DNA of 64,000 nucleotides from a virus: positions 12,829 through 76,828 of IMG/VR virus record IMGVR_UViG_3300034152_000419; one strand, written 5' to 3'. The notes under the pieces were generated by a model. It was not told the DNA's origin. It did not search any database and saw only the letters and a list, made by a program, of their open reading frames with translations. Of the stretch, positions 27,307 to 56,206 are shown piece after piece (position 1 is the first letter of the stretch; each line of letters begins with the position of its first letter). The translations under genes were made by a program, and so were the position numbers.

Positions 27307-27726
27307 TTAATACGGATTGACATATCCGCGAACACCCGCCCGACTTGTGATCGGACGAATTTTAACAAACGCATTATATTTGATTGCATCGTCAACCGTC
27401 CTCACGAATGATCCGCCTCCCGATGCACCGAGAGACAGTTCCCGATTCAAAACAATTTCGACATGAACGACTTTGTGATTCGAGTTCTCCCAAAAAACGA
27501 GGTCCCCCGAATCCGGGATGACGACTTGATTTTCTGAAAACATTTTCCACAGTTGAGCCGCAGTCCAGTCGCCGCCACGAGCGAGGACGCCGACGGATTT
27601 CAAACACTCGATGACCAGACCTGAGCAATCAAACGACGACGGATCATCTCCTCCCCATGTATAAAATTTTCCCCAGTTCCGCCGCGCGACATCGAGCACG
27701 ATCTGTCGTTTCTGAGTCTCGTTCAT
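27307..27726 (-). CDS. NlpC/P60 peptidoglycan peptidase (endolysin)
   Basis: YTWGG....FDCSGL, GDLVF, HV. Confidence 0.85.
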   Translation of the reverse strand: MNETQKRQIVLDVARRNWGKFYTWGGDDPSSFDCSGLVIECLKSVGVLARGGDWTAAQLWKMFSENQVVIPDSGDLVFWENSNHKVVHVEIVLNRELSLGASGGGSFVRTVDDAIKYNAFVKIRPITSRAGVRGYVNPY

Positions 27727-28712
27727 TTTTCACCTCCCCCGAAAATAAAGTGACCGTCTGTTTTCCAGTATTCGAGAAACTCTGTGAGATCCCTCATTCG
27801 GTTGACCTCAATCAGTTTTTTTTGTGCTCCGCATTTTTCCCGGATCTTTTCCATCACACCGTTTGTCCTCCGGGGAGAGGTGACAAAATAATTTGACGCA
27901 TACTTGAGAGCCTCTGCCTCATCGGAGTGCATATAGACTGCCGTCATCCGGTTTTTGTGGTAATCCTCATAGCGATAATTATATCCTCTCTTGTCTCCGT
28001 GATGAAAAAGCGTCCCCCACGGATAGATATATTTTGAGATCCCCATGACCGCGAGTGTATAATTGACAAAGTTCTCGCCTCCACCATAGATCCCCAGTGT
28101 CGGAGGAAAACCGCCGAGCATAGCAAAGATTTCTCGCGTCATAAGCATCCCACAGAGACTCATGACCGGGACCTCAAAAACGTCGTCGTGTCCTTTGAAA
28201 TTCATAAATTTATAGTGATATTTCGCCGTCTCCTCATCGAAATCCATCTGATAGATCAGACGTTGTTTTTCGAGGATCTGATATGTGAGAGGGAGAGACA
28301 GTGTCCCCGCGAGATCGACATGAGCGTCCTCATAATACATGAACATATCATGGAGAGAGTTTTGTGACGGAATCACGTGTCCATCCATGAACCACAGAAA
28401 CCGACCGGAGGATTGTTTGACTCCCTCGTTTTTTGCTTGCCAGTGACTCAACCGCTCATCATATCTAACATATTTGAGCCAGTCGAAAAACTTTGAGACC
28501 TGTTTGATGTGTCCCTCTTTTGCTTTCCCGTCTTTGCCGATGTGATCGTGACCTCTGTCCGGTTCGCGACAGTCGGGACCGTCAATATAATTATCGACCG
28601 CGATGATCTCAAAATCCACTTTGTCGATCAGTTGCTCCGCAATCGCCCGGATCGTGAAAGCGATGTTCGCCCATTCATTACAAAATGGAATTATTATTGA
28701 TAGATCACTCAT
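27723..28712 (-). CDS. GT-A glycosyltransferase with polypeptide-GalNAc-transferase-like motifs
   Basis: SIIIPFCNE, FMDGH (DxH), LGGF...IYGGGEN, downstream His. Confidence 0.8.
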   Translation of the reverse strand: MSDLSIIIPFCNEWANIAFTIRAIAEQLIDKVDFEIIAVDNYIDGPDCREPDRGHDHIGKDGKAKEGHIKQVSKFFDWLKYVRYDERLSHWQAKNEGVKQSSGRFLWFMDGHVIPSQNSLHDMFMYYEDAHVDLAGTLSLPLTYQILEKQRLIYQMDFDEETAKYHYKFMNFKGHDDVFEVPVMSLCGMLMTREIFAMLGGFPPTLGIYGGGENFVNYTLAVMGISKYIYPWGTLFHHGDKRGYNYRYEDYHKNRMTAVYMHSDEAEALKYASNYFVTSPRRTNGVMEKIREKCGAQKKLIEVNRMRDLTEFLEYWKTDGHFIFGGGEK

Positions 28713-29103
28713 CCTTGAATCCTCTGAGTTTTAACAGTTCCCGTTTCAGGATAGGAAAAACGGGGACCAGATCGGGAGCAAGTTCGACGACATCCTCCAC
28801 CTTGATCGAGGCAAAATGGACGACGGTCGATTTCATCATTCGCGCCTGTGTCCCTTTGGGAGTTGCGTCCTGAACATCCCTGAAAAATCCCGCCGACTTT
28901 TTCAAATGTCCATAATAATCAACCGCGAGGGATACAGAGCAGTCGATTTCGAGACCGACAAGTTTCCCGAATCTCTGTTTCGACAGTTTCCCGTTTCTGA
29001 CCGGGACCATCTCCTCCCGTCCGATTTTGCCACCTTGCACACCCCGGATGATCACATCGTTCTCAAATTTCAGGAGAACATTTTTGAAATCGCTCTGATC
29101 CAT
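28705..29103 (-). CDS. Hypothetical protein
   Basis: 132 aa, coupled to neighbours. Confidence 0.6.
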   Translation of the reverse strand: MDQSDFKNVLLKFENDVIIRGVQGGKIGREEMVPVRNGKLSKQRFGKLVGLEIDCSVSLAVDYYGHLKKSAGFFRDVQDATPKGTQARMMKSTVVHFASIKVEDVVELAPDLVPVFPILKRELLKLRGFKDE

Positions 29104-29106
29104 GTG

Positions 29107-29730
29107 TCATCCTTTTTTAAATGGGATTTTTTCCAGTATCATGACCCCCTCAAGTTCGAGGTCGAATCTGTATTCCATGAACAGGACCCGGAATGAAAAC
29201 CCGGACGACAGATTGTCCGCGAACTTGTCGAACAAAAAACCCAGTGACGAGATCGGTGAAAAGTGCGCCTTGTTTCCCGTTCCCTTTGGTTCGATGGGAG
29301 TGAACACCGAAACACGATTCCCGATCCCCATTAATTGAATCACATTGAAAATTGAACGGTCCAGATTTCGACAGTGTTCAAAAACATGAGACGCATGAAT
29401 ATCAAACTTTTTTCCATGCAGTCCGAGAGAGTGTGTGAGCAGTTGATCGACATCCCCACGTCGAATCCGCAGTCCCGCCTCACGACCCCGATTGACCCGT
29501 TCCCTGACGATCTCAACCCCGATGACATCCGAAATCAAACGAGTCTCAAGCATCGCGAGAATCTCGGTCCCATCCCCACAACCGAGCACGAGAACCGGAT
29601 CACTCAAAAAGTGCGAGGATTCGCGAGCGTTGCGAATCGCACGGAGACCCATCCGGGACGGTCGATCTCCCGCCTTTGCTCCGCCGCTTGAGTTCGAGCA
29701 AAATCTCCTCTGTATCTCCTCATAACTCAT
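29107..29730 (-). CDS. Class I SAM methyltransferase
   Basis: VLVLGCGDG, GVE, FD...SHVFEH. Confidence 0.8.
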   Translation of the reverse strand: MSYEEIQRRFCSNSSGGAKAGDRPSRMGLRAIRNARESSHFLSDPVLVLGCGDGTEILAMLETRLISDVIGVEIVRERVNRGREAGLRIRRGDVDQLLTHSLGLHGKKFDIHASHVFEHCRNLDRSIFNVIQLMGIGNRVSVFTPIEPKGTGNKAHFSPISSLGFLFDKFADNLSSGFSFRVLFMEYRFDLELEGVMILEKIPFKKG

Positions 29731-30062
29731 TTAAACACCTTGACCGTGACCTGTCCGATTGAGAAAAATGAATCCGATCCGATTGTGAGCATGTATTGTC
29801 CCATCGAATCAGATCCCGCCGTCAGTATCAGACCGAATGTCACCTCCGTGCCGGGAGGGATCGGTTTGATGTGTGTGATACTCATCGAGACACAGACCGC
29901 TTTGTCACCGAGAGATCTCCACACAGTATCATTGACCAGAGCACACAGGAGACCATTCGGGACCTGACGTCCCTCGCGATATTTTTCTCCGATCAAGTCC
30001 CCATAAGCCTCGATCATCTCCGATGTGACAGTGAATTTTCTTTCGACTGAGTTCATCCCCAT
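29727..30062 (-). CDS. Hotdog-fold (MaoC/thioesterase-like) protein
   Basis: VT.EMIEAYGDL.G, VPNGLL, H.KPI.PG. Confidence 0.55.
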   Translation of the reverse strand: MGMNSVERKFTVTSEMIEAYGDLIGEKYREGRQVPNGLLCALVNDTVWRSLGDKAVCVSMSITHIKPIPPGTEVTFGLILTAGSDSMGQYMLTIGSDSFFSIGQVTVKVFK

Positions 30063-31345
30063 GTCTCCGAATCCCCGAAAATCGGGAGATAATGTCGATT
30101 ATAAATATAATCCCAGTTGTGAAATTGCCGATGAAAAGTTTTGCAGTTGATTGATTCATTCTCTCTCATCCGCCCGACGATCAGTGCCGCGACGAGATCA
30201 AAATATTCCCGCTCTGAAACTGCGTGTTTCGGTTTCACCTCGAACGATCCGAAATTGACAAACAGGGATGAGAATCCGTGAACCTCAAGCATCATGTCGA
30301 GCGACTTGTTGAGCACGACCAGACATCCCCCCGCGAGAGCCGCCTCAAGTCCGATCAGACCGAATGACTCCTCCTGTGTCGGATAGATCATCACATTCGA
30401 GCACATCAAAAGTTCCCGGACCATTCTGATCGGGACCCCTGTTTTATATTTTTCTGAAAACCGGGATGTGAAAAAGAACTCCTGACGTGTGAGTCCGTTC
30501 CGCATCGCAATCCTCTCAAAATGCTCGACGTCCTGCATAGGTTCCCGACCCGTCGCCCATGAGTTACAGACACACAGACACACCGAGAATCCCATTTTTT
30601 TGAACGCTCGAAAAAGAATAATCACATCTCGGAGATGTTTTGCCTTGAGCCTGTCCGATCCGACCGGATAGATCTGAACGATGTCCGATTGCAGGAGACC
30701 CGGATAATTTTTAATCAAAAGATCCGTCTCAGGATCGAACTCCATAAACGACCGGAGATCTTTGATGTGAGGGATCACTTTCACGTCCGCGACTTTGCAC
30801 TGATATGCAGTCGCGACCCGGAGAGCGTCCGTCTTGTTCGGATAAATGAGTTTGTGTCCGGGACCATATCTTTTCAGATTCCACCAGTCAAAACCCTGAG
30901 CCGGGAGAGAGTGAATCCAGTGTAAATATTTTATCAGATGTCCCTCCCTCCGCAGTTCCCGACCGGACTCCATCAACGCGAGAGCATAGGGGAGATTCCA
31001 TCCCGTGAAAACAAAATCGTGAGTGAAAACGAAATCAGATCCGGGGAGGATATTTTTCAGCACGTGTGAGATCTTTTTGACGTCTGCCTTGTGCTCCTCG
31101 GAGATCTCTTTTTCGCTCCGGTAGTCAACAAGATCCGGTTGAGGTAGAGCCGGAAAAACCTCGACCCCCAGTTCCCGGAAAAACTTTTCACCCCGACTCT
31201 CATCGTTGAATTGTTCGGAGACGACGACACAGACATCGTGTCCGTGTTCGGTGAGCATCCGGCATTGATCCTTGACAATACCAGTCAAAGAATATCCCGG
31301 ATGGAAATCGGTGAAATTTGTAAGGATGGAAATTTTCTTTTTCAT
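30053..31345 (-). CDS. GT-B (GT4-like) glycosyltransferase
   Basis: YPTQEESFGLIGLEA (EX7E-type motif). Confidence 0.8.
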   Translation of the reverse strand: MKKKISILTNFTDFHPGYSLTGIVKDQCRMLTEHGHDVCVVVSEQFNDESRGEKFFRELGVEVFPALPQPDLVDYRSEKEISEEHKADVKKISHVLKNILPGSDFVFTHDFVFTGWNLPYALALMESGRELRREGHLIKYLHWIHSLPAQGFDWWNLKRYGPGHKLIYPNKTDALRVATAYQCKVADVKVIPHIKDLRSFMEFDPETDLLIKNYPGLLQSDIVQIYPVGSDRLKAKHLRDVIILFRAFKKMGFSVCLCVCNSWATGREPMQDVEHFERIAMRNGLTRQEFFFTSRFSEKYKTGVPIRMVRELLMCSNVMIYPTQEESFGLIGLEAALAGGCLVVLNKSLDMMLEVHGFSSLFVNFGSFEVKPKHAVSEREYFDLVAALIVGRMRENESINCKTFHRQFHNWDYIYNRHYLPIFGDSETWG

Positions 31346-35053: not shown

Positions 35054-36907
35054 TTATCCCCTCCACGCGACAATAATTTGAATTATAGGATTTTCCGTGA
35101 ACCGGACGTCACTGACATTTTCCTCAAGTCCTTGTGAATAAAACGTCGATTGAGAAAGCAAATTATTTGCCTCCGCCTCGATGTGTTCGGGAGTCGTTGC
35201 CGTCTTTTTGATTCTCAGTTCATCGAGAATGACATCCTCGATCCCTCGTGTGTCAGATCCAAGTCTCCGACAGATTCTCGCACCGACTCCCGTTTCGCCG
35301 ACAATCGTCCCGGATGCACCATGATTGCCGATCTGAGACCCGTCCTGATAAATTCTTTTATTTTCTCCGTTCTTGTATCTTAAATGTGTTACATGCCACC
35401 CCGTCGAAACACCGACATCGTCATGTCGATTATATCCGCCAGTCAAAGTCAACCGAGAGTTGATTCTGACCGGATTCGATCCTCCATCGAGTCCGAACAT
35501 TATTTGAGGATTGTTTGAGTCCGCGCCACGGTTGAAAAAACCCGCATCGTCTCCATGAGGGACCGAATAGATATTGAACAGAGCGAGGACCTGAACCTCT
35601 GACGCTCCGTTGAGATCCGTTGCGAGAGTTGCATCTGTAATGTCATAATAATCACCTCCCGCATTTGTGAAATCGTGTGCCTTGCCGAATCGACCATCGA
35701 CCCAGTCTGACGGGTCCATCCCGACCGCAGTCGCCTCATTTCCATTTTCGGTTGAGTCTGCGACAGAGTCGCCGGACCCCGTGATCTCCTCCTGAAAATG
35801 CCACACTGCAATATAATCAGACCACACAGTCGCCGGATCTGACGGATCACTTGCCGCAGACGAGTTCCCATAGTAAAGACGGATCGGAGTGTCCAGATCA
35901 TGAGAAACCGTTGAGATTTTAACATGAGCGACCAGTTCCCCGGTTGACTGATCCCAGTAAACCCGCTCATAGGGGAGGACAGTCTCATCGTCCTCCGCGA
36001 TAAATACCAGATCATATCCGTTCGCGAGTGCCTTTGTCAGATCGCCGTCTGTAATATCCACAGACAGGATGAAATCGGTGAGATCCGCAGTGCCGGGGAT
36101 TTTTGTGTGATCGATTGTGAGTGTCTTTCGATAATTATAATCAAGATCCCACCACGAGGACGGTCCCCCGGATTCATCGGTTGCAAATGTCTGCAATTTC
36201 GACGAGACCGTCAGATCGATATCAAGTCCTGAATTTTTATATTCAAAATTTGACAGATTAAATGTCAGGACAGGAGTCCCGTCATCCATGATCTGAAATT
36301 CTTTGTCAGTATATCCGCCAGTCGCCGAGGCAACAACCCCGACAATGGTTCCATCCCGGATCAGTGGATATCCGACACCCGCACCGAGAGCATCGCCGAT
36401 CTTGAGATATCCGTTCTCAACCGATCCACCACGGTTGAAAACGAAAACCTCCCGATCAACCGAGAGCCATTTCGCGAAATCGTTATTCCAGATATACAAA
36501 AGACCGTTGCTCGTATTGTACCATCCGAGACCATCTGTCGGGGAGGACGGAGCAGTCGCCGAAATGACCCACCCCTCATTGATTGCCGCGATGAGAGCAT
36601 TGACCTCCGCTTGAGTGTACTTGTCGAGGTTCGTGATGTCCGCCTCGACATGAGTGTGAACGGTGTCCGCTTTCCCGTCGAGTGCATTTTGTAAATCGGT
36701 CTGATCCGACAGCGTTCCGACGATGTCACCCCAGTTGACCGAACTTGTCTCGAACCAGTATGAGAGCGAGTTCCATTCAGTGACACCGTCCCCGATCTTG
36801 ATCTTTTTCGTGTCCTGCTCGATCCCGATCTCACCGTCCGCGAGGACCGGATTCACTGAGGTCCAGTCCGCCGCCGAGTCACGTCTGATCTGAATTTTAT
36901 CAGCCAT
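35054..36907 (-). CDS. Fibre/receptor-binding protein (MTD-N + DUF2341 + LamG)
   Basis: IQIRRDSAADW...NPVLA.GE.G...KIGDG; W...Y.YRK.LTI...LYYGN; LamG-like ...ILDELRI. Confidence 0.75.
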   Translation of the reverse strand: MADKIQIRRDSAADWTSVNPVLADGEIGIEQDTKKIKIGDGVTEWNSLSYWFETSSVNWGDIVGTLSDQTDLQNALDGKADTVHTHVEADITNLDKYTQAEVNALIAAINEGWVISATAPSSPTDGLGWYNTSNGLLYIWNNDFAKWLSVDREVFVFNRGGSVENGYLKIGDALGAGVGYPLIRDGTIVGVVASATGGYTDKEFQIMDDGTPVLTFNLSNFEYKNSGLDIDLTVSSKLQTFATDESGGPSSWWDLDYNYRKTLTIDHTKIPGTADLTDFILSVDITDGDLTKALANGYDLVFIAEDDETVLPYERVYWDQSTGELVAHVKISTVSHDLDTPIRLYYGNSSAASDPSDPATVWSDYIAVWHFQEEITGSGDSVADSTENGNEATAVGMDPSDWVDGRFGKAHDFTNAGGDYYDITDATLATDLNGASEVQVLALFNIYSVPHGDDAGFFNRGADSNNPQIMFGLDGGSNPVRINSRLTLTGGYNRHDDVGVSTGWHVTHLRYKNGENKRIYQDGSQIGNHGASGTIVGETGVGARICRRLGSDTRGIEDVILDELRIKKTATTPEHIEAEANNLLSQSTFYSQGLEENVSDVRFTENPIIQIIVAWRG

Positions 36908-37250
36908 TTGCATCGCCTCCGTCAACTACTTGAGAGGGGAGATAGACACTGTCCGCGACACCCCCCTCGACGTTTCGATCTGCCGTGATCGATTCGTCCT
37001 GTCCGAGATCCTCCCATTCAGTTTGAACGTCAAGATGATCGAGAGCATCTGAGATCGAGAGATCCGAGGTTCCATCGTTAATCACGATCTGAGCCGCCGA
37101 AACACGAGTTTTCAAAGACTCAGATTGAGTGATATCGTCGAGAGAAAACAGTTCCGTGAGGTTCCGTTGCTCTCCTGCTTTCACGACGAGTCCGAGATCC
37201 TCAATTCCGATATCGGACCCGCCGGGATTTTTCGCGATGATCGTTGTCAT
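36900..37250 (-). CDS. Small adaptor protein with shared N-terminal domain
   Basis: KN..GSD..IEDLG...NDG.SDLS, shared with 37254-38675. Confidence 0.7.
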   Translation of the reverse strand: MTTIIAKNPGGSDIGIEDLGLVVKAGEQRNLTELFSLDDITQSESLKTRVSAAQIVINDGTSDLSISDALDHLDVQTEWEDLGQDESITADRNVEGGVADSVYLPSQVVDGGDANG

Positions 37251-39166: not shown

Positions 39167-39546
39167 TATTTTTGACCCGGAGGTTCCGCATGTCTGACAT
39201 CGAGTCTTTCGATCTGCCTCTTGAGTTTTTCGTTCTCCTGTTTCAGTTCATCAATTCTCTTTTCTATCTTTAGATATTCAGACTCCGCGACTTTTCGGGA
39301 TTCCGACGGAGTCGTGATCGACCTCAGACTCCCACTGAGAAACATGATCAGGATCGTGACTGCAACCGGGATGAAACCCGCGACCAGACCCCACATTCCC
39401 GCCTTGACCTTGAGAATCGTCTGCTCGATCTCAAACTCCCGGAGTCTCGTACTGAGAGCCTCGATGCAACCGTTGAGTCTTTCAAGTTCAGACAGGACAT
39501 GACGTCCCCATTCTGTCCACCCGTTCGTTTCCGGCATCTCATTCAA
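39166..39546 (-). CDS. Membrane protein with coiled coils
   Basis: One central TM segment. Confidence 0.65.
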   Translation of the reverse strand: MNEMPETNGWTEWGRHVLSELERLNGCIEALSTRLREFEIEQTILKVKAGMWGLVAGFIPVAVTILIMFLSGSLRSITTPSESRKVAESEYLKIEKRIDELKQENEKLKRQIERLDVRHAEPPGQK

Positions 39547-40103
39547 TCCTCGTCCTCGAACCGTGCCTCGGTGACAATAGGTTTCGACCGGAGCAGTCCT
39601 CTCTCACTTTGCGGACAAGGCATATAAACACTTACGATATAACAGTCCTCGATAGCCTGAAAATTATGAGGTGTCTTTGACGGGACATAGATTGAACGAC
39701 CCTGAGCGACAGTGTAAATTTTCGCCTGACCCCCCGGAGGACACATCTTGATTGATGCACTGCCTCGAACGACGGAGATGTGTTGAATCTCTCCCTCATG
39801 GTAGTGAGTTTTGAGCCTGTGTCCCTTTGGAATCAATGACCTCTCGATTCTGAGAATCCCGTCAAAGTATAGAGGAAAAACCTGAATCTCGGACTGTTCT
39901 CCCCTGTCAGTCTGCATCGTATAGGATGACGGACCGATTGATGACCCCACAATCTCTGACGCCGGGACCCCCTTGAGTTGACTCGTCAACTCCCTGAGTT
40001 TTGTTAAATGCTCACTCGTCTGTCCCAGTTCACACGCGAGATCATCCGCCTTTTTTGACGGTTTCCTATGAACAAGCATCTGAATTATATTTGACATTTT
40101 CAC
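39543..40103 (-). CDS. Cupin domain protein
   Basis: HYH...V.RG...G.SIYVP...PH. Confidence 0.75.
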   Translation of the reverse strand: MKMSNIIQMLVHRKPSKKADDLACELGQTSEHLTKLRELTSQLKGVPASEIVGSSIGPSSYTMQTDRGEQSEIQVFPLYFDGILRIERSLIPKGHRLKTHYHEGEIQHISVVRGSASIKMCPPGGQAKIYTVAQGRSIYVPSKTPHNFQAIEDCYIVSVYMPCPQSERGLLRSKPIVTEARFEDED

Positions 40104-40117
40104 TCCTCTCCCTCCAT

Positions 40118-40771
40118 TTAATTTTTCACAAAAACAAGCATCGCGAAAGTATAATTCAGATCATTCACCCTGACAATGGGACGACCCACTCGCGGGATTT
40201 CCTTGTTCGACAAAAGTGTGAATCCACTTTGATTCGCAATCGTGACCATCTCTTTGAGTTCATTCCGGTCGAAAATAGTCCACGGGAGACCATTGAGTTC
40301 GGTTGTGTTTATCTTTTTTGACCAGTAATCAGTTGTAATAAAAAGCAGTCCCTCCCGTTTAATAAGTCTTTCGCAGATCTTGAAAAACTGATTGACAGCA
40401 ATTCCGTGTTCAATCACCGAGACGCATGTGACGAACCGAAACATCTTGTCGCGAAAAGAGTTGTCCTCGAACCTCCCCCTGAGAATCCGAGCGAAATTCT
40501 GTTTCTTGTCCTGCGTGAATTTCGAGACATCGTCATATCTATCAATCCCGAACATTCGTCGAAATCCCATCGCACGGAGCATCTTTAAAGTTGCGAGCAT
40601 CCAACAACCGACATCGAGGATCGGAGCGTTTCGATGTCTCCCCTCAAGGATCTGATATAATTTCGACAGATCCCAGTTTTTCAATCTGTCCCGGTGAACT
40701 GGCAAATTTTTTGATTTCAAAAATCTGACAGCATCGTCAATCTCTTTTTTTGATCTCAGAATTTCGATCAT
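40118..40771 (-). CDS. Class I SAM methyltransferase
   Basis: ILDVGC, GID, CVSVIEHG, GLLFITTD. Confidence 0.8.
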   Translation of the reverse strand: MIEILRSKKEIDDAVRFLKSKNLPVHRDRLKNWDLSKLYQILEGRHRNAPILDVGCWMLATLKMLRAMGFRRMFGIDRYDDVSKFTQDKKQNFARILRGRFEDNSFRDKMFRFVTCVSVIEHGIAVNQFFKICERLIKREGLLFITTDYWSKKINTTELNGLPWTIFDRNELKEMVTIANQSGFTLLSNKEIPRVGRPIVRVNDLNYTFAMLVFVKN

Positions 40772-41514
40772 CTCTCGAACCTCGATTTCAGTGGAAACAA
40801 CTCAGTGATAACTTGAATCAGATCATCGTTGAGACCTTTGTCGTTGTGATTCATGAATTGAACGTGAGGTGACAGTATTATCTCAAGGATCTCCCTCTGA
40901 GTCAATTTTTTACTGAAACCCGCGACCCATCCATCATGAATCTCCGCCTCCTGTCCGTCAAAAAAGTGATTGAAATATAACGTCTCCCAGTTGAAACCGT
41001 GTGACGTTCCATATCTCGTCACGATGTCAACATAAAAACTTTTGTGAACCAGTTTCGGGACGTGTGTTTCATAATTATATATCCGATCCGTCTTTCCCTT
41101 GAGAGCCTGAACAGTTCTCCAAAAAAACGAGGTCCATCCCTTTTTCAGTCTCGTCGGGATCTCCGAGTCTGTGAGATCTGCGAGAGCATAATTCCGCGAG
41201 ACCTCTTTGATCCCTGTCTTTTTCATGAGATAGAAATCATCGCACATATACAAAAACGGATCACTGACATCGTCCACAAAACACGCCTTGAGCAGTTTTT
41301 CCGAGATCAGACGGTTTCTTTGTTGTGCTCCCCCGACCCATCCTCTTTCAGGGATCAGATTCAGATCTCCCGACCACTCAGGACGCCTCTCTCCGATGAG
41401 ATAGACATTTCGCAGATCCTCAAAGTACTTGAACAGGGATCGGAGAGAATATTTCAACTCCTCCCCCCAGTATGAGGTTGACCGACAATATGGATAAACT
41501 GCATCAATTTGCAT
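40768..41514 (-). CDS. Stealth-like sugar-phosphotransferase
   Basis: IDAVY, ELKYSLRS...P.W, FLYMCDDF, H.P. Confidence 0.7.
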   Translation of the reverse strand: MQIDAVYPYCRSTSYWGEELKYSLRSLFKYFEDLRNVYLIGERRPEWSGDLNLIPERGWVGGAQQRNRLISEKLLKACFVDDVSDPFLYMCDDFYLMKKTGIKEVSRNYALADLTDSEIPTRLKKGWTSFFWRTVQALKGKTDRIYNYETHVPKLVHKSFYVDIVTRYGTSHGFNWETLYFNHFFDGQEAEIHDGWVAGFSKKLTQREILEIILSPHVQFMNHNDKGLNDDLIQVITELFPLKSRFER

Positions 41515-42436
41515 CGATGAAAACCATCTCCTCGACCGTCGGTGACATCGAGTCGAGGACATCTTTGAATTTTCTCCTCTGAAACATAATCTCGGCATCG
41601 TTCATGCCGTAAGTGATCAGGAGGTCCTCTCCGTCTCTGACCAGACCACAAGGGAAAATATGCCATTTGCCGAACTCAATCGGAGTCTTTGAGTATTTCA
41701 AGATCTGAAACGGAGGTTCCGCAGAGAATAGCATCGCACCGACGAAATAAACCCGATTGATCGCCCGGAGAAAATGAGGTGTCGCTCTGTGTTTCGGCAT
41801 CCATAAATGACTCTGAAATAAGCACAGATATCCCTCGTCAATTCTGATCGGAGATGTCCCCCCGTGCGCCCATCCCCACACCCATTCGTTCATCCCCGGA
41901 GATCTCCACTGTTCACGAGTCTCCACATCAAAGACGATCTGAGGTGTGACCATGTAATGAGCCATTAAACGTCCGTTATATTCAAAAAATGTCCAGTTTT
42001 TCTCTGTGCGTTTGCCAGTCTTGACAATCTGTTTCCCGGAGACTTTCCTGACTGCGTTGACCTTGCAATATCCCATCTGAGCAAAAACAAAAGAGTTTCG
42101 TCCGGGAGGGGAGTCAACATAGGCGAGATATAACTGACCATTGAACCAAAAAAACCGAGGGTCCTCCGCCCCTTTGATCACCCTGAACTCTCTCCGAACT
42201 CTCAGAGTCCGCATATCGAGGGGTCCCATATAAATTGAACCACAGAGTCCCCAGTCGTCCTCGTCTTTGCGATAGGCAATCCACATCCGATCTCCGACCT
42301 TTGCGAGTGTCGCATTGTAAGCACCTTTTGACAGACCGGGAGTGATGACTTTGTGCAATATCACCCGGACACCTCCGCCGCTTGAATCTTTTGATTGAAT
42401 CTCGCGTTCGTTTCCTTGTTGAAAATCCGGGACCAT
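41504..42436 (-). CDS. Beta-propeller glycosidase/phosphorylase-like protein (GH130/GH43-like)
   Basis: YN, AYR, EDPR, EKNW, FPCGL, YGMND; true start probably near 42365. Confidence 0.7.
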   Translation of the reverse strand: MVPDFQQGNEREIQSKDSSGGGVRVILHKVITPGLSKGAYNATLAKVGDRMWIAYRKDEDDWGLCGSIYMGPLDMRTLRVRREFRVIKGAEDPRFFWFNGQLYLAYVDSPPGRNSFVFAQMGYCKVNAVRKVSGKQIVKTGKRTEKNWTFFEYNGRLMAHYMVTPQIVFDVETREQWRSPGMNEWVWGWAHGGTSPIRIDEGYLCLFQSHLWMPKHRATPHFLRAINRVYFVGAMLFSAEPPFQILKYSKTPIEFGKWHIFPCGLVRDGEDLLITYGMNDAEIMFQRRKFKDVLDSMSPTVEEMVFIDAN

Positions 42437-42990
42437 TTTTTCGGTTCATTCTGTGCTCGTTTCCTGAACCACTCATCCGCAGAGCACCGAGTCCCGTGTT
42501 TCTTGAGAATGAACCTCGGAATATATGCAAGTCGTCCCCGTTCAAGTGCTTTCCACATCATGAACAGATCCTCCCGGACAAGGGGAGTTTCCACGAACTC
42601 CTCAAGGATCGAGATCAGAAAATCAGTCTTGAAAAGCACACGAGCCGTCGCCGACTGCGTCCATCCCCGACCTTTGATGAGTTTCTTTTGTTCTCCATCA
42701 TGACGGATCGACCAGAATAAAAGAAAATCGAGATCCTCGAATCCGCTCATGTCATCGGGAAAATGTCCGATCAGTTCGTCATCACTGTCCAGACAAAAAA
42801 CCCATTTCGTCCCGATCTTGTAAAGTTCATTGAGTCTTTTGTGTCCGATAGTTTCCACTTGCCAGTTGACAGGATCAGAGATCCCCACCATCCACGGGAG
42901 ATCCGCCGCATATTTCAGGACCCCCTTTCGCGTTGCCGGAGAGAGCAGATGATCAGGAGCAATTACTGTCGAAAGAGTGGTGTCTCTCAT
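42361..42990 (-). CDS. GT-A glycosyltransferase-like protein
   Basis: WVFCLDSDD (DxD) and ED motifs. Confidence 0.6.
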   Translation of the reverse strand: MRDTTLSTVIAPDHLLSPATRKGVLKYAADLPWMVGISDPVNWQVETIGHKRLNELYKIGTKWVFCLDSDDELIGHFPDDMSGFEDLDFLLFWSIRHDGEQKKLIKGRGWTQSATARVLFKTDFLISILEEFVETPLVREDLFMMWKALERGRLAYIPRFILKKHGTRCSADEWFRKRAQNEPKKWSRIFNKETNARFNQKIQAAEVSG

Positions 42991-43544
42991 TTTGAATACA
43001 TTTTCCGAACTTGTTGAATTTTCCAGACATGAGGAAAAGCGACCCCCGGAGGATCGACCCCGATGAATGGACAAAGTTTTTCCCATCCATCCCCCGCACA
43101 AATGTTCATGATCAGGAGATCTCCGGGACGGTCTCTGAAATATGATCGAACATAAGCCTCATGACGATCCCACGCATCAAAAAACACCTCCTCATCGAAC
43201 CATCGACAGCCATAAACTCGATTGTGAACATAGATCGTCCATCTCCGGGTTTTCGGTCCCTTTGGAAAAGGTTTCGTCGAAAAGAACTCCCGACAGTTTT
43301 TCAACCATTCCGATTTTTCCCTCGTCGTCAGGATAAATTTCGATCCCGGATATTTTTGATCAAGCCACCGAAACCGCATCGTCACGGACAGATCATCTGA
43401 AAAGTCCGCCTCATCGATTGCCTTGACATTGACCGGGAGATGAACAGCACTGAATCCCAAAATCCGAAAAGCATGAGACAAAGACGTCGTCCCAGTTCTT
43501 GAAAGTCCGATTCCGAAAACCTTTGTCCATCCACGATCAACCAT
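42987..43544 (-). CDS. Sulfotransferase family protein
   Basis: GIGLSRTGTTSL, YPGSKFILTTR, DGWEKLC.F.G...FPH. Confidence 0.85.
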   Translation of the reverse strand: MVDRGWTKVFGIGLSRTGTTSLSHAFRILGFSAVHLPVNVKAIDEADFSDDLSVTMRFRWLDQKYPGSKFILTTREKSEWLKNCREFFSTKPFPKGPKTRRWTIYVHNRVYGCRWFDEEVFFDAWDRHEAYVRSYFRDRPGDLLIMNICAGDGWEKLCPFIGVDPPGVAFPHVWKIQQVRKMYSK

Positions 43545-43556
43545 CGATCCCCCCTA

Positions 43557-44006
43557 TCAACTCGGACTCGGTGACGGCGACGGACTCGGTGACGGCGACG
43601 GACTCGGACTCGGACTCGGTGACGGACTCGGAGACGGTGACGGCGACGGACTCGGACTCGGACTCGGTGACGGACTCGGTGACGGTGAGGGGGATGTCTC
43701 ACCGAGCAGTTCGTCGAGTTTTGCCTCGATCTCATTGAGTTGTGCCTGAATCGCGTCAATGTCAGTTTGCAGATCCGCGACGTCGGATTCGATGGAATCG
43801 ACTGTCGATTGCAAGTTTGAAACCGCCGTCTGTAAAGCATCGACGTCGGACTGTAAACTCGCGAGATTCGTCGTCAGTGTGTCAACATTCGCATCGATTG
43901 TGTCGATTTTTGACTCAAGAGTCGTGATCGTGTCGAGGATCTCCGCGACTGTCGGATCGACATAAACCTCGCCGGATCTGACACTATTGTTTCCAGTGTC
44001 GAGCAT
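43557..44006 (-). CDS. Coiled-coil protein with (Ser-Pro)22 tail
   Basis: Long heptad repeat followed by a 45-aa SP repeat (43560-43694). Confidence 0.8.
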   Translation of the reverse strand: MLDTGNNSVRSGEVYVDPTVAEILDTITTLESKIDTIDANVDTLTTNLASLQSDVDALQTAVSNLQSTVDSIESDVADLQTDIDAIQAQLNEIEAKLDELLGETSPSPSPSPSPSPSPSPSPSPSPSPSPSPSPSPSPSPSPSPSPSPS

Positions 44007-55645: not shown

Positions 55646-56206
55646 TTATGTCGTTGTCGTTGTGGTTGTTGTTGTGGTTGTCGTTGTGACGAACGTGACC
55701 GTGAAAAACGGACTGTCAGGATTGTTCGCCGAATCGGACAGACCCTCACCCTCGAATGTCAGAATTTGCCATTCGTCGGAGATCAGGTTGAACGCCGCTC
55801 CGGGATTCAATGTGACTCTGTGAAATTCCCACGTCGCGTTCTCCCCGACCGGATTGTCGGAGACGAACTTGAGTGCATATTCCTTGTCGAGAACTGTGTT
55901 CGCATAGAGCACATTCGTCCCGGACAGTGTCGCTTTAAAAAACTTTTGCAAGTTTTTGATAGAGATCTCGTCCAGATCAAATGTCACTGTATATCCGGTT
56001 TCAAGGACGACGATCTTGTCCTTTTGCCGAGTTCCCGAACGCGAGGAAAAATGCTCAAGTCTCTCCTCCGTCACTTCGATTGAAAATGACGGACTGTTTC
56101 CGACATCAACCAGAGACGCCGGAGGAGTGTCGCCGACCCACTCGCCGATTGACAAAATTCCTTTTCCGAGCGAGTAAAGTTCAGTTGACGGACTTTGAAT
56201 GGGCAT
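55646..56206 (-). CDS. Major tail tube protein with Thr13 tail
   Basis: LGKG, DVGN, EHFSSRSG, DNPVG; position. Confidence 0.8.
   Translation of the reverse strand: MPIQSPSTELYSLGKGILSIGEWVGDTPPASLVDVGNSPSFSIEVTEERLEHFSSRSGTRQKDKIVVLETGYTVTFDLDEISIKNLQKFFKATLSGTNVLYANTVLDKEYALKFVSDNPVGENATWEFHRVTLNPGAAFNLISDEWQILTFEGEGLSDSANNPDSPFFTVTFVTTTTTTTTTTTTT

Follow-up and report, generated by a model that had tools for sequence, protein, structure and literature searches.

A 76.8-kb genome of an uncultured siphophage from soil carries, on the same strand as the tail-fibre and lysis genes and between them, a gene whose predicted product resembles the polypeptide GalNAc-transferases (ppGalNAc-Ts) of family GT27. 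These enzymes start mucin O-glycosylation in animals and their acceptors are unstructured Thr/Ser/Pro-rich peptides. The question raised by this locus is what such an enzyme would glycosylate in a phage. The initial annotation, made from 64,000 nucleotides of the genome (referred to here as the window, whose numbering is used throughout), had proposed that it is the initiating enzyme for the poly-Thr and Ser-Pro (SP) tags. About half of the sampled words of the phage were present in three soil-metagenome samples from one study, and there were no RNA datasets with words of the phage among the sequencing runs listed.

The gene and its main motifs are as follows.

27723–28712, minus strand: predicted GT27-like GT-A glycosyltransferase (329 aa, ATG start, soluble)
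28374–28391, minus strand: FMDGHV (aa 108–113), DxH motif with D110 and H112 as putative Mn2+ ligands, aligned by HMMER to DSH of ppGalNAc-T10
28071–28091, minus strand: IYGGGEN (aa 208–214), counterpart of the GT27 WGGEN (Gal/GalNAc-T) motif, aligned to IWGGE of GT27 enzymes
27999–28010, minus strand: LFHH (aa 235–238), with H237 as putative third metal ligand, aligned to the GH histidine of TgGalNAc-T3 in a HMMER domain (domain 2) that is weak on its own

All of the peptides quoted in the initial annotation, which also included SIIIPFCNE (aa 5–13), PVMSLCGMLMTREIFAMLGGF (aa 182–202) and KNRMTAVYMHSD (aa 253–264), were found in the translation of the 329-aa open reading frame. In the AF2 model (pLDDT 93) the catalytic domain comprises residues 1–323, with its first beta-strand beginning at residue 4. 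No transmembrane segment was detected (maximum 19-residue Kyte-Doolittle hydropathy of 1.45), so the protein is predicted to be soluble in the compartment of virion assembly. The N-terminal anchor and stem of a type II membrane protein are absent, and there was no Pfam match to Ricin_B_lectin, the catalytic-domain model taking up the 329-aa protein as far as residue 323.

When the protein was compared with 177,635 PDB sequences using phmmer, the top match was ppGalNAc-T10 (E = 2.7e-4). The best E-value for a family profile (33 sequences) against the PDB was 1.8e-7, and GT27 enzymes, among them T10, T3, T7, T4, PGANT9 and T12, account for seven of the eight top matches. HMMER aligns the motif pairs proposed in the initial annotation (SIIIPFhNE, DxH and PVMaGG...LGgYD...IWGGE), to which the TgGalNAc-T3 alignment adds the GH metal histidine and tRNq.RlAeVWMDE. 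The Foldseek matches listed (30, from ranks 1–47) are all GT27 enzymes, with E-values of 2e-16 to 6e-13 and TMq of 0.58–0.72. In VIA, a fold search independent of Foldseek, the Z-score is 25.4 for GalNAc-T1, with 292 residues aligned, and 24.6 for TgGalNAc-T3, the two alignments covering 290–292 residues. The next GT-A enzymes have Z-scores of 18.5 or less over 188–236 residues, such that GT27 leads every other GT-A enzyme by 6–7 Z units and 55–100 aligned residues. The best profile and fold matches (human GalNAc-T1, T2, T4, T7, T10 and T12, Drosophila PGANT9 and Toxoplasma GalNAc-T3) extend over the whole catalytic domain and have the same motif order, namely ..IIPF.NE, DxH, PVM..G...LGG(Y/F), (W/Y)GGE, a downstream metal histidine and RN..R.A.V(W/Y)M.

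Judged by these alignments and the predicted fold, the resemblance to GT27 exceeds chance. The initial annotation had set GT27 against polysaccharide- or DNA-modifying GT2 enzymes as the test of its assignment, and both the best sequence matches and the best structural matches are ppGalNAc-transferases. The phage protein, as predicted from its sequence, is nevertheless not a canonical GT27 enzyme, since it has neither a lectin domain nor a membrane anchor. It also shares only about 15% identity with GT27 enzymes, has YGGGEN in place of WGGEN and would work in the bacterial cytoplasm, unlike the GT27 enzymes of the Golgi. DNA modification as the main role of the enzyme was set aside in view of how the folds rank and of the association with tags described below.

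Pfam Glycos_transf_2 (PF00535), a model that includes the GT27 catalytic domain along with CAZy GT2 and does not tell the two apart, matches the protein with 54.2 bits (cut-off 23.3) and also matches all 33 aligned relatives. At E ≤ 0.1, PF02709 (Glyco_transf_7C) is absent from the window protein and all 33 family members, and the only matches came from P0133, a fused relative, and from neighbouring Atlas clusters. The Pfam family GlcNAc (PF11397; CAZy GT60) consists of cytoplasmic polypeptide or hydroxyproline GlcNAc-transferases and, at the same threshold, matches neither the window protein nor the 33 relatives. Fold matches in BFVD include phage proteins named 'Glycosyltransferase, GlcNAc' (E ~1e-9, TM 0.50–0.57), and these are weaker than the matches to GT27. 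The NCBIfam matches are all sub-threshold, generic GT2 signals, while the sole match in PHROGs is a weak one to phrog_22088 (function unknown).

The residues D110, H112, H237, G211, G212 and E213 are invariant in all 80 full-length family members (28–50% identity). The family comprises at least 267 clusters at 50% identity and is almost exclusively viral. Among the cellular genomes of 185,579 species it was found at seven loci, all on contigs of metagenome-assembled genomes; poly-Thr runs are present at four of them and a gene for a GT4-like glycosyltransferase (see below) at five, the other two being short or truncated contigs. A tblastn search of 50,697 cultured-phage records gave zero matches to the enzyme, and nothing relevant was found in the literature on GT27 or ppGalNAc-T relatives in phages or on poly-Thr virion tags.

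Five open reading frames of the virion modules end in a tag encoded by mixed codons.

58557–59492, minus strand: major capsid protein (HK97 type; phrog_1623, E 8e-106; Pfam Phage_capsid), ending ...QPNPTTTTT (T5)
57677–58261, minus strand: head-tail adaptor Ad1 (phrog_477, E 3e-15), T12 end
57473–57664, minus strand: 63-aa open reading frame of unknown function in the head-neck module, T17 end
55646–56206, minus strand: major tail (tube) protein (phrog_807, E 2e-28), T13 end
43557–44006, minus strand: coiled-coil protein, (SP)22S end, for which a link to the GT27-like enzyme is not supported

The poly-Thr and SP tags reported in the initial annotation are therefore present at C-termini and are encoded by mixed synonymous codons, exemplified by the T5 tail of the capsid protein (ACG ACG ACA ACG ACC). 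The 76.8-kb genome contains no other poly-Thr runs of five or more residues and a single further Thr run, an internal TTTT in the open reading frame at 61830–62429. The proposal that the (SP)22 tag is a substrate of the GT27-like enzyme is not supported: (SP)n or (TP)n repeats are absent from about 160 related loci, and the cassette next to the gene for the (SP)22 protein is a different one, which includes sulfotransferase, Stealth-like and GH130-like genes.

The poly-Thr tails, by contrast with the SP tag, travel with the enzyme, and they fit the unstructured Thr-rich acceptors of GT27. Runs of five or more Thr residues are found within 10 kb of the enzyme gene in 48 of 77 loci, with 264 on the same strand as the enzyme and four on the opposite strand, and in 23 of the 77 loci a run lies within four residues of the stop codon. 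Runs of (ACN)6 are present in 41/45 viral records with the enzyme compared with 5/19 of the capsid-related records from which it is missing (Fisher p = 5e-7), and in records that are at least 90% complete the corresponding values are 19/19 and 1/8 (p = 9e-6); both tests treat records as independent and are uncorrected for shared ancestry. Complete capsid relatives without the enzyme have no poly-Thr runs. Within the capsid family of the window the tail state changes only three times on the tree, and an independent-pairs test on that tree gave p ~1 with 3–5 usable pairs and so no power. The same capsid family is missing from 38 enzyme-positive records (positive controls passed), which means that the association spans unrelated lineages with genomes of 42–277 kb; some of the tagged proteins of the other lineages are tail proteins. 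The GT27-like family is strongly associated with poly-Thr tails or tracts across phage lineages.

Upstream of the GT27-like gene are the following genes.

28705–29103, minus strand: 132-aa protein of unknown fold; its stop codon overlaps the start codon of the GT27-like gene
29107–29730, minus strand: SAM-dependent methyltransferase, variable cassette part (Pfam MetW, Methyltransf_11 and Methyltransf_12)
29727–30062, minus strand: 111-aa possible hot-dog-fold protein, variable cassette part (faint Pfam FlK and 4HBT signals below cut-off)
30053–31345, minus strand: GT4-like GT-B glycosyltransferase, conserved partner (AF2 pLDDT 92.5; fold matches)

A homologue of the 132-aa protein adjoins the GT27-like gene in 22/77 loci; the protein has no match in Pfam, PHROG, NCBIfam, Atlas or PDB (best PDB E-value 0.79). 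Homologues of the methyltransferase and of the possible hot-dog-fold protein are missing from the 77 related loci. Of the 77 loci, 60 have the GT4-like gene, which almost always lies upstream of the GT27-like gene on the same strand and usually directly after tagged open reading frames. The best named fold matches of its product are the retaining GT4 enzymes BshA, MshA, WaaB, PimB and TarM (Z 14.7–17.4). GtfA/GtfB and SdgB are GT4 O-GlcNAc transferases which start glycosylation of the low-complexity Ser-rich repeats of adhesins in the cytoplasm. They share the GT-B fold with the GT4-like partner, to which BshA and MshA are closer.

The explanation that we prefer, with a probability of roughly 0.57, is that a cytoplasmic, lectin-less relative of GT27 starts the glycosylation of the poly-Thr tails and that the GT4-like and variable genes extend the glycan to give a mucin-like coat. 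The analysis shows the fold, the conserved motifs and the association across genomes, from which we infer a peptide acceptor, a donor sugar, an order of action and a timing. The GT27-like enzyme, probably made late in infection, would use a UDP-sugar together with a divalent metal bound by D110, H112 and H237, and the first sugar would probably be transferred to Thr hydroxyls in the tails of the capsid, adaptor, tail-tube and 63-aa proteins. The GT4-like enzyme and the products of the variable genes between the two glycosyltransferase genes (the methyltransferase and the hot-dog-like protein) would then extend and decorate the glycan, and the outcome would be a virion with a mucin-like coat. 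Poly-Thr phages with the GT27-like family thus probably sugar-coat their own particles. A more far-reaching proposal, which we put forward tentatively and with more doubt than belief, is that the viral family with the GT27 fold and no lectin domain carries out mucin-type O-glycosylation in the cytoplasm, placing the first hexosamine directly on the encoded poly-Thr tags of capsid, neck, tail-tube and fibre proteins, while a swappable cassette between this gene and that of the GT4-like partner would diversify the glycan.

A phage system of the kind proposed for the soil phage is found in mycobacteriophage Che8. According to PMC12619734 and PMC11256854, which cite Freeman et al. 2023 (Cell Host Microbe 31:1216), the Che8 virion is glycosylated by a system (gp108–110) of phage glycosyltransferases and methyltransferases, and the glycans are at the C-termini of the capsid and tail-tube subunits. 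No sequence relationship to the GT27-like enzyme was detected, the tblastn search of phage records having given no match. Of the three Che8 enzymes, one is a GT2-methyltransferase fusion, another a weak GT2 and the third a GT25. For gp109 and gp110 the hhalign probability of a match to the GT27-like protein is below 1%, while gp108 is set apart from it by Pfam architecture only. The host of Che8 is an actinobacterium, whereas the present phage is uncultured and from soil.

The initial annotation is supported in the resemblance to GT27 and in the link to poly-Thr and is not supported in the link to SP, and its assignment of the initiating role is the part on which the GT4-like enzyme has to be weighed. 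Comparative data do not separate the two enzymes as the source of the first sugar because the GT4-like gene is also present in 42 of the 45 enzyme-positive whole records. That the GT4-like enzyme puts the first sugar on the Thr tails and the GT27-like enzyme adds a later one is unlikely, even though the gene usually follows the tagged open reading frames and three incomplete records (G075, 82% complete; G065, 91%; G002, 74%) have the GT4-like gene and poly-Thr runs with no detectable GT27-like gene. In G075 another GT-A enzyme, a GT2-methyltransferase fusion, occupies the position of the GT27-like gene, and a relaxed HMM search of loci L166, L226, L168, L239 and L174 found no GT27-like remnant. 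Other records point the opposite way: in G078, which is complete, the GT4-like gene occurs by itself and there is no poly-Thr run, and two records (G058, 100% complete; G045, 93%) combine the GT27-like gene with poly-Thr runs and lack the GT4-like gene. The Ser-rich-repeat initiators GtfA and SdgB are among the fold matches of the GT4-like enzyme (Z 12.3 and 12.2), but these peptide O-transferases rank only 37–38 and the best named matches act on small-molecule, lipid or polysaccharide acceptors, whereas it is specifically initiating peptide transferases that are the relatives of the GT27-like enzyme.

Two other explanations concern the acceptor. It is quite improbable that this is a non-protein molecule, for example a polymer of the host cell wall or surface, a lipid carrier, a small molecule or phage DNA, with the co-occurrence of poly-Thr reflecting shared ancestry or habitat. 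Consistent with such an acceptor, the Pfam and NCBIfam signals are generic to GT2, bacterial GT2 enzymes of ~300 aa occur among the nearest Atlas clusters, and the association inside the capsid family of the window is largely at the level of clades. The Staphylococcus aureus enzymes TarP, which like the GT27-like enzyme is phage-borne (prophage-encoded), and TarS also match (profile E 3e-5 and 1.8e-3; VIA Z 16.8). These are GT2 wall-teichoic-acid GlcNAc-transferases with a GT-A fold and a similar N-terminal nucleotide-binding half, but they score clearly lower than GT27, align over ~230 residues and have a polyol-phosphate polymer as acceptor. The lead of GT27 over every other GT-A enzyme, the lack of a membrane segment and the near absence of the family from cellular genomes argue against a non-protein acceptor, as do the poly-Thr association in lineages without a detectably related capsid and the lack of runs in complete capsid relatives without the enzyme. 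Still less probable is that virion proteins are modified at structured surface sites, with the Thr tails serving, for example, as flexible hydrophilic spacers or being modified by host enzymes. The Che8 virion, glycosylated according to the two sources named above, offers a precedent, as the C-termini of its capsid and tail-tube proteins read ...NKTGS and ...YSDGS, with no poly-Thr run, whereas the soil phage has acceptor-like C-terminal tags on both. The presence of the tag tracks that of the enzyme, however, and the established acceptors of GT27 are unstructured.

To our knowledge, virion glycosylation has been demonstrated experimentally only in mycobacteriophages, with enzymes that are unrelated to the GT27-like family and no obvious acceptor tag. 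New here are a defined, almost wholly viral enzyme family and its pairing with a simple putative acceptor tag, the poly-Thr tail, that can be read from sequence, so that a peptide and purified enzyme would suffice to test the hypothesis. The pairing predicts modified proteins in dozens of uncultured phage lineages. If initiation by the GT27-like enzyme is correct, phage biology would be linked to mucin-type O-glycosylation, and the compact soluble enzyme and its tag could serve protein glyco-engineering in bacteria. Were the more far-reaching proposal true, phages would possess counterparts of the animal initiating enzymes that are close in function and possibly also in evolution, and a mucin-like coat would be present on many environmental phages, from siphophages of ~40 kb to jumbo phages of 277 kb. 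Such a widespread glycan coat might influence how particles adsorb, how stable they are, how they adhere to environmental matrices or how defence systems recognise them.

The GT27-like enzyme is encoded in a single virus record of 76,828 bp, of which the window makes up the right-hand 64 kb. The listed genes of the region are all on the minus strand. DNA of this uncultured phage turns up in three soil-metagenome samples, all from one study. The genome surroundings are of siphophage type, with genes for a major capsid protein (phrog_1623, E 8e-106), head-tail adaptor, tail terminator, major tail protein, tape measure protein and Mtd-like fibre protein, and an NlpC/P60 lysin immediately downstream of the enzyme gene.

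27723..28712, minus strand: GT27-like glycosyltransferase (ORF, 329 aa)
28705-29103, minus strand: 132-aa protein, the stop codon of which overlaps the start codon of the GT27-like gene
30053-31345, minus strand: GT4-like GT-B enzyme (430 aa)
35054-36925, minus strand: fibre-like protein (623 aa) with an N-terminal Mtd_N domain (major tropism determinant, E 1.4e-14), then a phage tail repeat

The initial annotation had likened the 329-aa protein to the polypeptide GalNAc-transferases (GT27), and the peptides it quoted are all present, in the order and at the positions given. Pfam detects only a generic Glycos_transf_2 domain (54 bits), a model that also covers the GT27 catalytic domain. When the single protein was searched against all PDB sequences the best match was ppGalNAc-T10 (E 2.7e-4), improving to 1.8e-7 with a profile built from 33 relatives. 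The next profile matches were GalNAc-T3, T7, T4, PGANT9 and T12; seven of the best eight were GT27 enzymes (T1 was lower down), and the only other enzymes near the top were TarP (E 3e-5) and TarS. The HMMER alignments reproduced the motif pairs that had been proposed: DxH/DSH, YGGGE/WGGE, H237/GH histidine and RN..R.A.VYM/RNQVRLAEVWM.

The structural comparisons agree. The protein was modelled confidently with AlphaFold2 from the alignment (mean pLDDT 93, pTM 0.91). When this model was compared to the PDB with Foldseek, every match listed (ranks 1–47, E 2e-16 to 6e-13) was a GT27 enzyme. In a Foldseek-independent search of 48,161 representative chains with VIA, mouse GalNAc-T1 (Z 25.4 over 292 aligned residues) and Toxoplasma GalNAc-T3 (Z 24.6) were followed by other GT-A enzymes at Z ≤18.5 over 188–236 residues, including a Leptospira GT, WrtF, CgT, K4CP, SpsA, RmlT, TarS and TarP. 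A further independent structure search, of the Atlas, found chordate and arthropod ppGalNAc-T clusters (TM 0.75–0.77) and bacterial clusters of ~300 aa with PF00535 and Glyco_transf_7C (TM 0.77–0.78). The GT27 resemblance is therefore real, the best sequence and structure matches being GT27 and not polysaccharide- or DNA-modifying GT2 enzymes. Unlike GT27, however, the window protein has neither a lectin domain nor a membrane anchor and shares only ~15% identity, and Pfam Glyco_transf_7C was undetected in it and in the 33 relatives; it is for these reasons called GT27-like and not a canonical GT27 member. No hydrophobic segment was found in the 329 residues and the first beta-strand of the model starts at residue 4, so the protein is predicted to be a soluble, cytoplasmic enzyme.

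The family is sizeable, with at least 426 proteins (word-indexed search) and at least 267 clusters at 50% identity, and is almost wholly metagenomic or viral. D110, H112, H237, G211, G212 and E213 are invariant in all full-length sequences (81 distinct members, 28–50% identity). In GT27 enzymes Mn2+ is held by the DxH pair and a downstream histidine. No family match was found in 50,697 cultured-phage records, and 185,579 species genomes gave only seven loci, all on MAG contigs, probably phage sequences that ended up in the bins. The GT4-like gene is present on five of these contigs, the other two being short or truncated, and poly-Thr runs are present on four. By label, four contigs belong to Desulfobacteraceae or Deltaproteobacteria and one each to Proteobacteria, Thermoplasmatota and Thorarchaeota; the first of these labels hint at the phage host only weakly, at best.

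Of 77 viral loci collected as encoding relatives of the GT27-like enzyme, 60 also contain the GT4-like gene, as do 42 of 45 whole records. The GT4-like gene is nearly always upstream of the GT27-like gene on the same strand, 0.04–9 kb away, with variable genes between. A homologue of the 132-aa ORF adjoins the GT27-like gene in 22 of the 77 loci; the 132-aa protein matched nothing in Pfam, PHROG, NCBIfam, the PDB or the Atlas and could be an accessory factor. These co-occurrences define a conserved unit consisting of the GT4-like gene, a variable cassette, an optional 132-aa ORF and the GT27-like gene. The model of the GT4-like enzyme (pLDDT 92.5) matches GT-B folds, the named top matches being the retaining GT4 enzymes BshA, MshA, WaaB, PimB and TarM, while the peptide O-transferases GtfA and SdgB match only at Z ~12.

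The virion module contains five ORFs with a homopolymeric C-terminal tag.

Major capsid protein: C-terminal T5
Head-tail adaptor: C-terminal T12
57473-57664, minus strand: 63-aa ORF between the head-tail adaptor and neck genes, no family match; C-terminal T17
Major tail protein: C-terminal T13
43557-44006: coiled-coil protein; C-terminal (SP)22

The Thr tags use mixed codons (ACA, ACG, ACC and ACT) and there are no poly-Thr runs of ≥5 elsewhere in the genome, the sole other run being an internal TTTT in ORF 61830-62429. This pattern speaks for selection acting on the peptide and against DNA slippage. Directly downstream of the (SP)22 protein is a second carbohydrate cassette (39543-44006, minus strand) with cupin, SAM methyltransferase, Stealth_CR2-like, GH130-like, 246-aa unknown and Sulfotransfer_4 genes. 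The SP tag had also been proposed as a target of the GT27-like enzyme, which is unsupported: a separate cassette adjoins the SP protein and no (SP)n or (TP)n repeats occur among ~160 loci carrying either enzyme, so the (SP)22 tag and second cassette look specific to this phage.

The association with poly-Thr extends across the enzyme family. Thr runs of ≥5 lie within 10 kb of the GT27-like gene in 48 of the 77 loci, 264 on the strand of the enzyme versus four on the opposite strand. In 23 loci a run is ≤4 residues from the stop codon and in the remainder the tracts are internal to large, fibre-like proteins; some tagged proteins in other records are recognisable tail proteins. Of 45 enzyme-positive records of ≥40 kb, 41 contain the coding pattern for six threonines, (ACN)6 (19/19 of those ≥90% complete). 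The control, the pattern read backwards, is near zero in most of these records, though not in G035 (13 control versus 11 real matches). By comparison, of 19 records with the capsid family of the window and without the enzyme, five have the pattern (1/8 of the near-complete); three of these are fragments of close kin (37–74% complete) and two have single, noise-level matches. The difference gives Fisher p values of 5e-7 (all) and 9e-6 (near-complete), in tests that ignore shared ancestry and on sets that were sampled differently. On the capsid tree there are only three changes of tail state, so a paired test is powerless. The capsid family is, however, missing from all 38 further enzyme-positive records (42–277 kb), while two positive controls do contain it, and the link thus spans lineages that are not detectably related.

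Within the HK97-type capsid family (L078-L157) the C-terminus ends at ...VVKxxNIG or adds a short linker and 3–10 Thr. This extension is limited to two clades, where most of the less-fragmentary records carry the enzyme pair; in the enzyme-positive L097 and L147 the capsid protein is tailless and other proteins have Thr tails. Among records of 113–277 kb with the enzyme pair there are genes for proteins of 1,300–1,400 aa that contain poly-Thr/Ser tracts internally, dozens per protein (L064:6836-10708, L053:10981-14874 and L060:16580-20707; records G060 (277 kb), G053/G055 and G057). These records, up to jumbo-phage size, contain 103–162 (ACN)6 matches each, and the large products are predicted mucin-like fibre proteins, not short C-terminal tails.

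We give a probability of about 0.75 to the GT27-like enzyme belonging to a system that O-glycosylates poly-Thr on the virion. That it is also the initiating enzyme, as first proposed, is somewhat favoured, mainly because of its specific homology to initiating peptide transferases, but the evidence at record level is sparse and points both ways. Poly-Thr runs occur with the GT27-like gene but no GT4-like gene in G058 (100% complete) and G045 (93%), and G078 (100% complete) has the GT4-like gene alone and no poly-Thr runs. In G075, G065 and G002, all of them incomplete, the GT4-like gene occurs together with poly-Thr runs and the GT27-like gene was undetected. In G075 a GT2 and Methyltransf_24 fusion (L226:11715-13169), with the architecture of the glycosylation enzyme gp108 of mycobacteriophage Che8, directly follows the GT4-like gene, which suggests that different GT-A enzymes may be swapped beside it.

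According to Freeman et al. 2023, as relayed in PMC12619734 and PMC11256854, the capsid and tail-tube subunits of mycobacteriophage virions are glycosylated at their C-termini. The glycosylation enzymes of Che8 are unrelated to the GT27-like family and, unlike in the window phage, its capsid and tail-tube proteins have no poly-Thr tail. Literature searches turned up neither GT27-like enzymes of phages nor poly-Thr tags on virion proteins. The original observation is confirmed and its interpretation stands in part, for the GT27 likeness and the poly-Thr link and not for the SP tag. What is partly supported, from sequence comparisons, is that phage virion O-glycosylation would here involve a new, GT27-like family of enzymes and an acceptor tag that may be read directly from the sequence.
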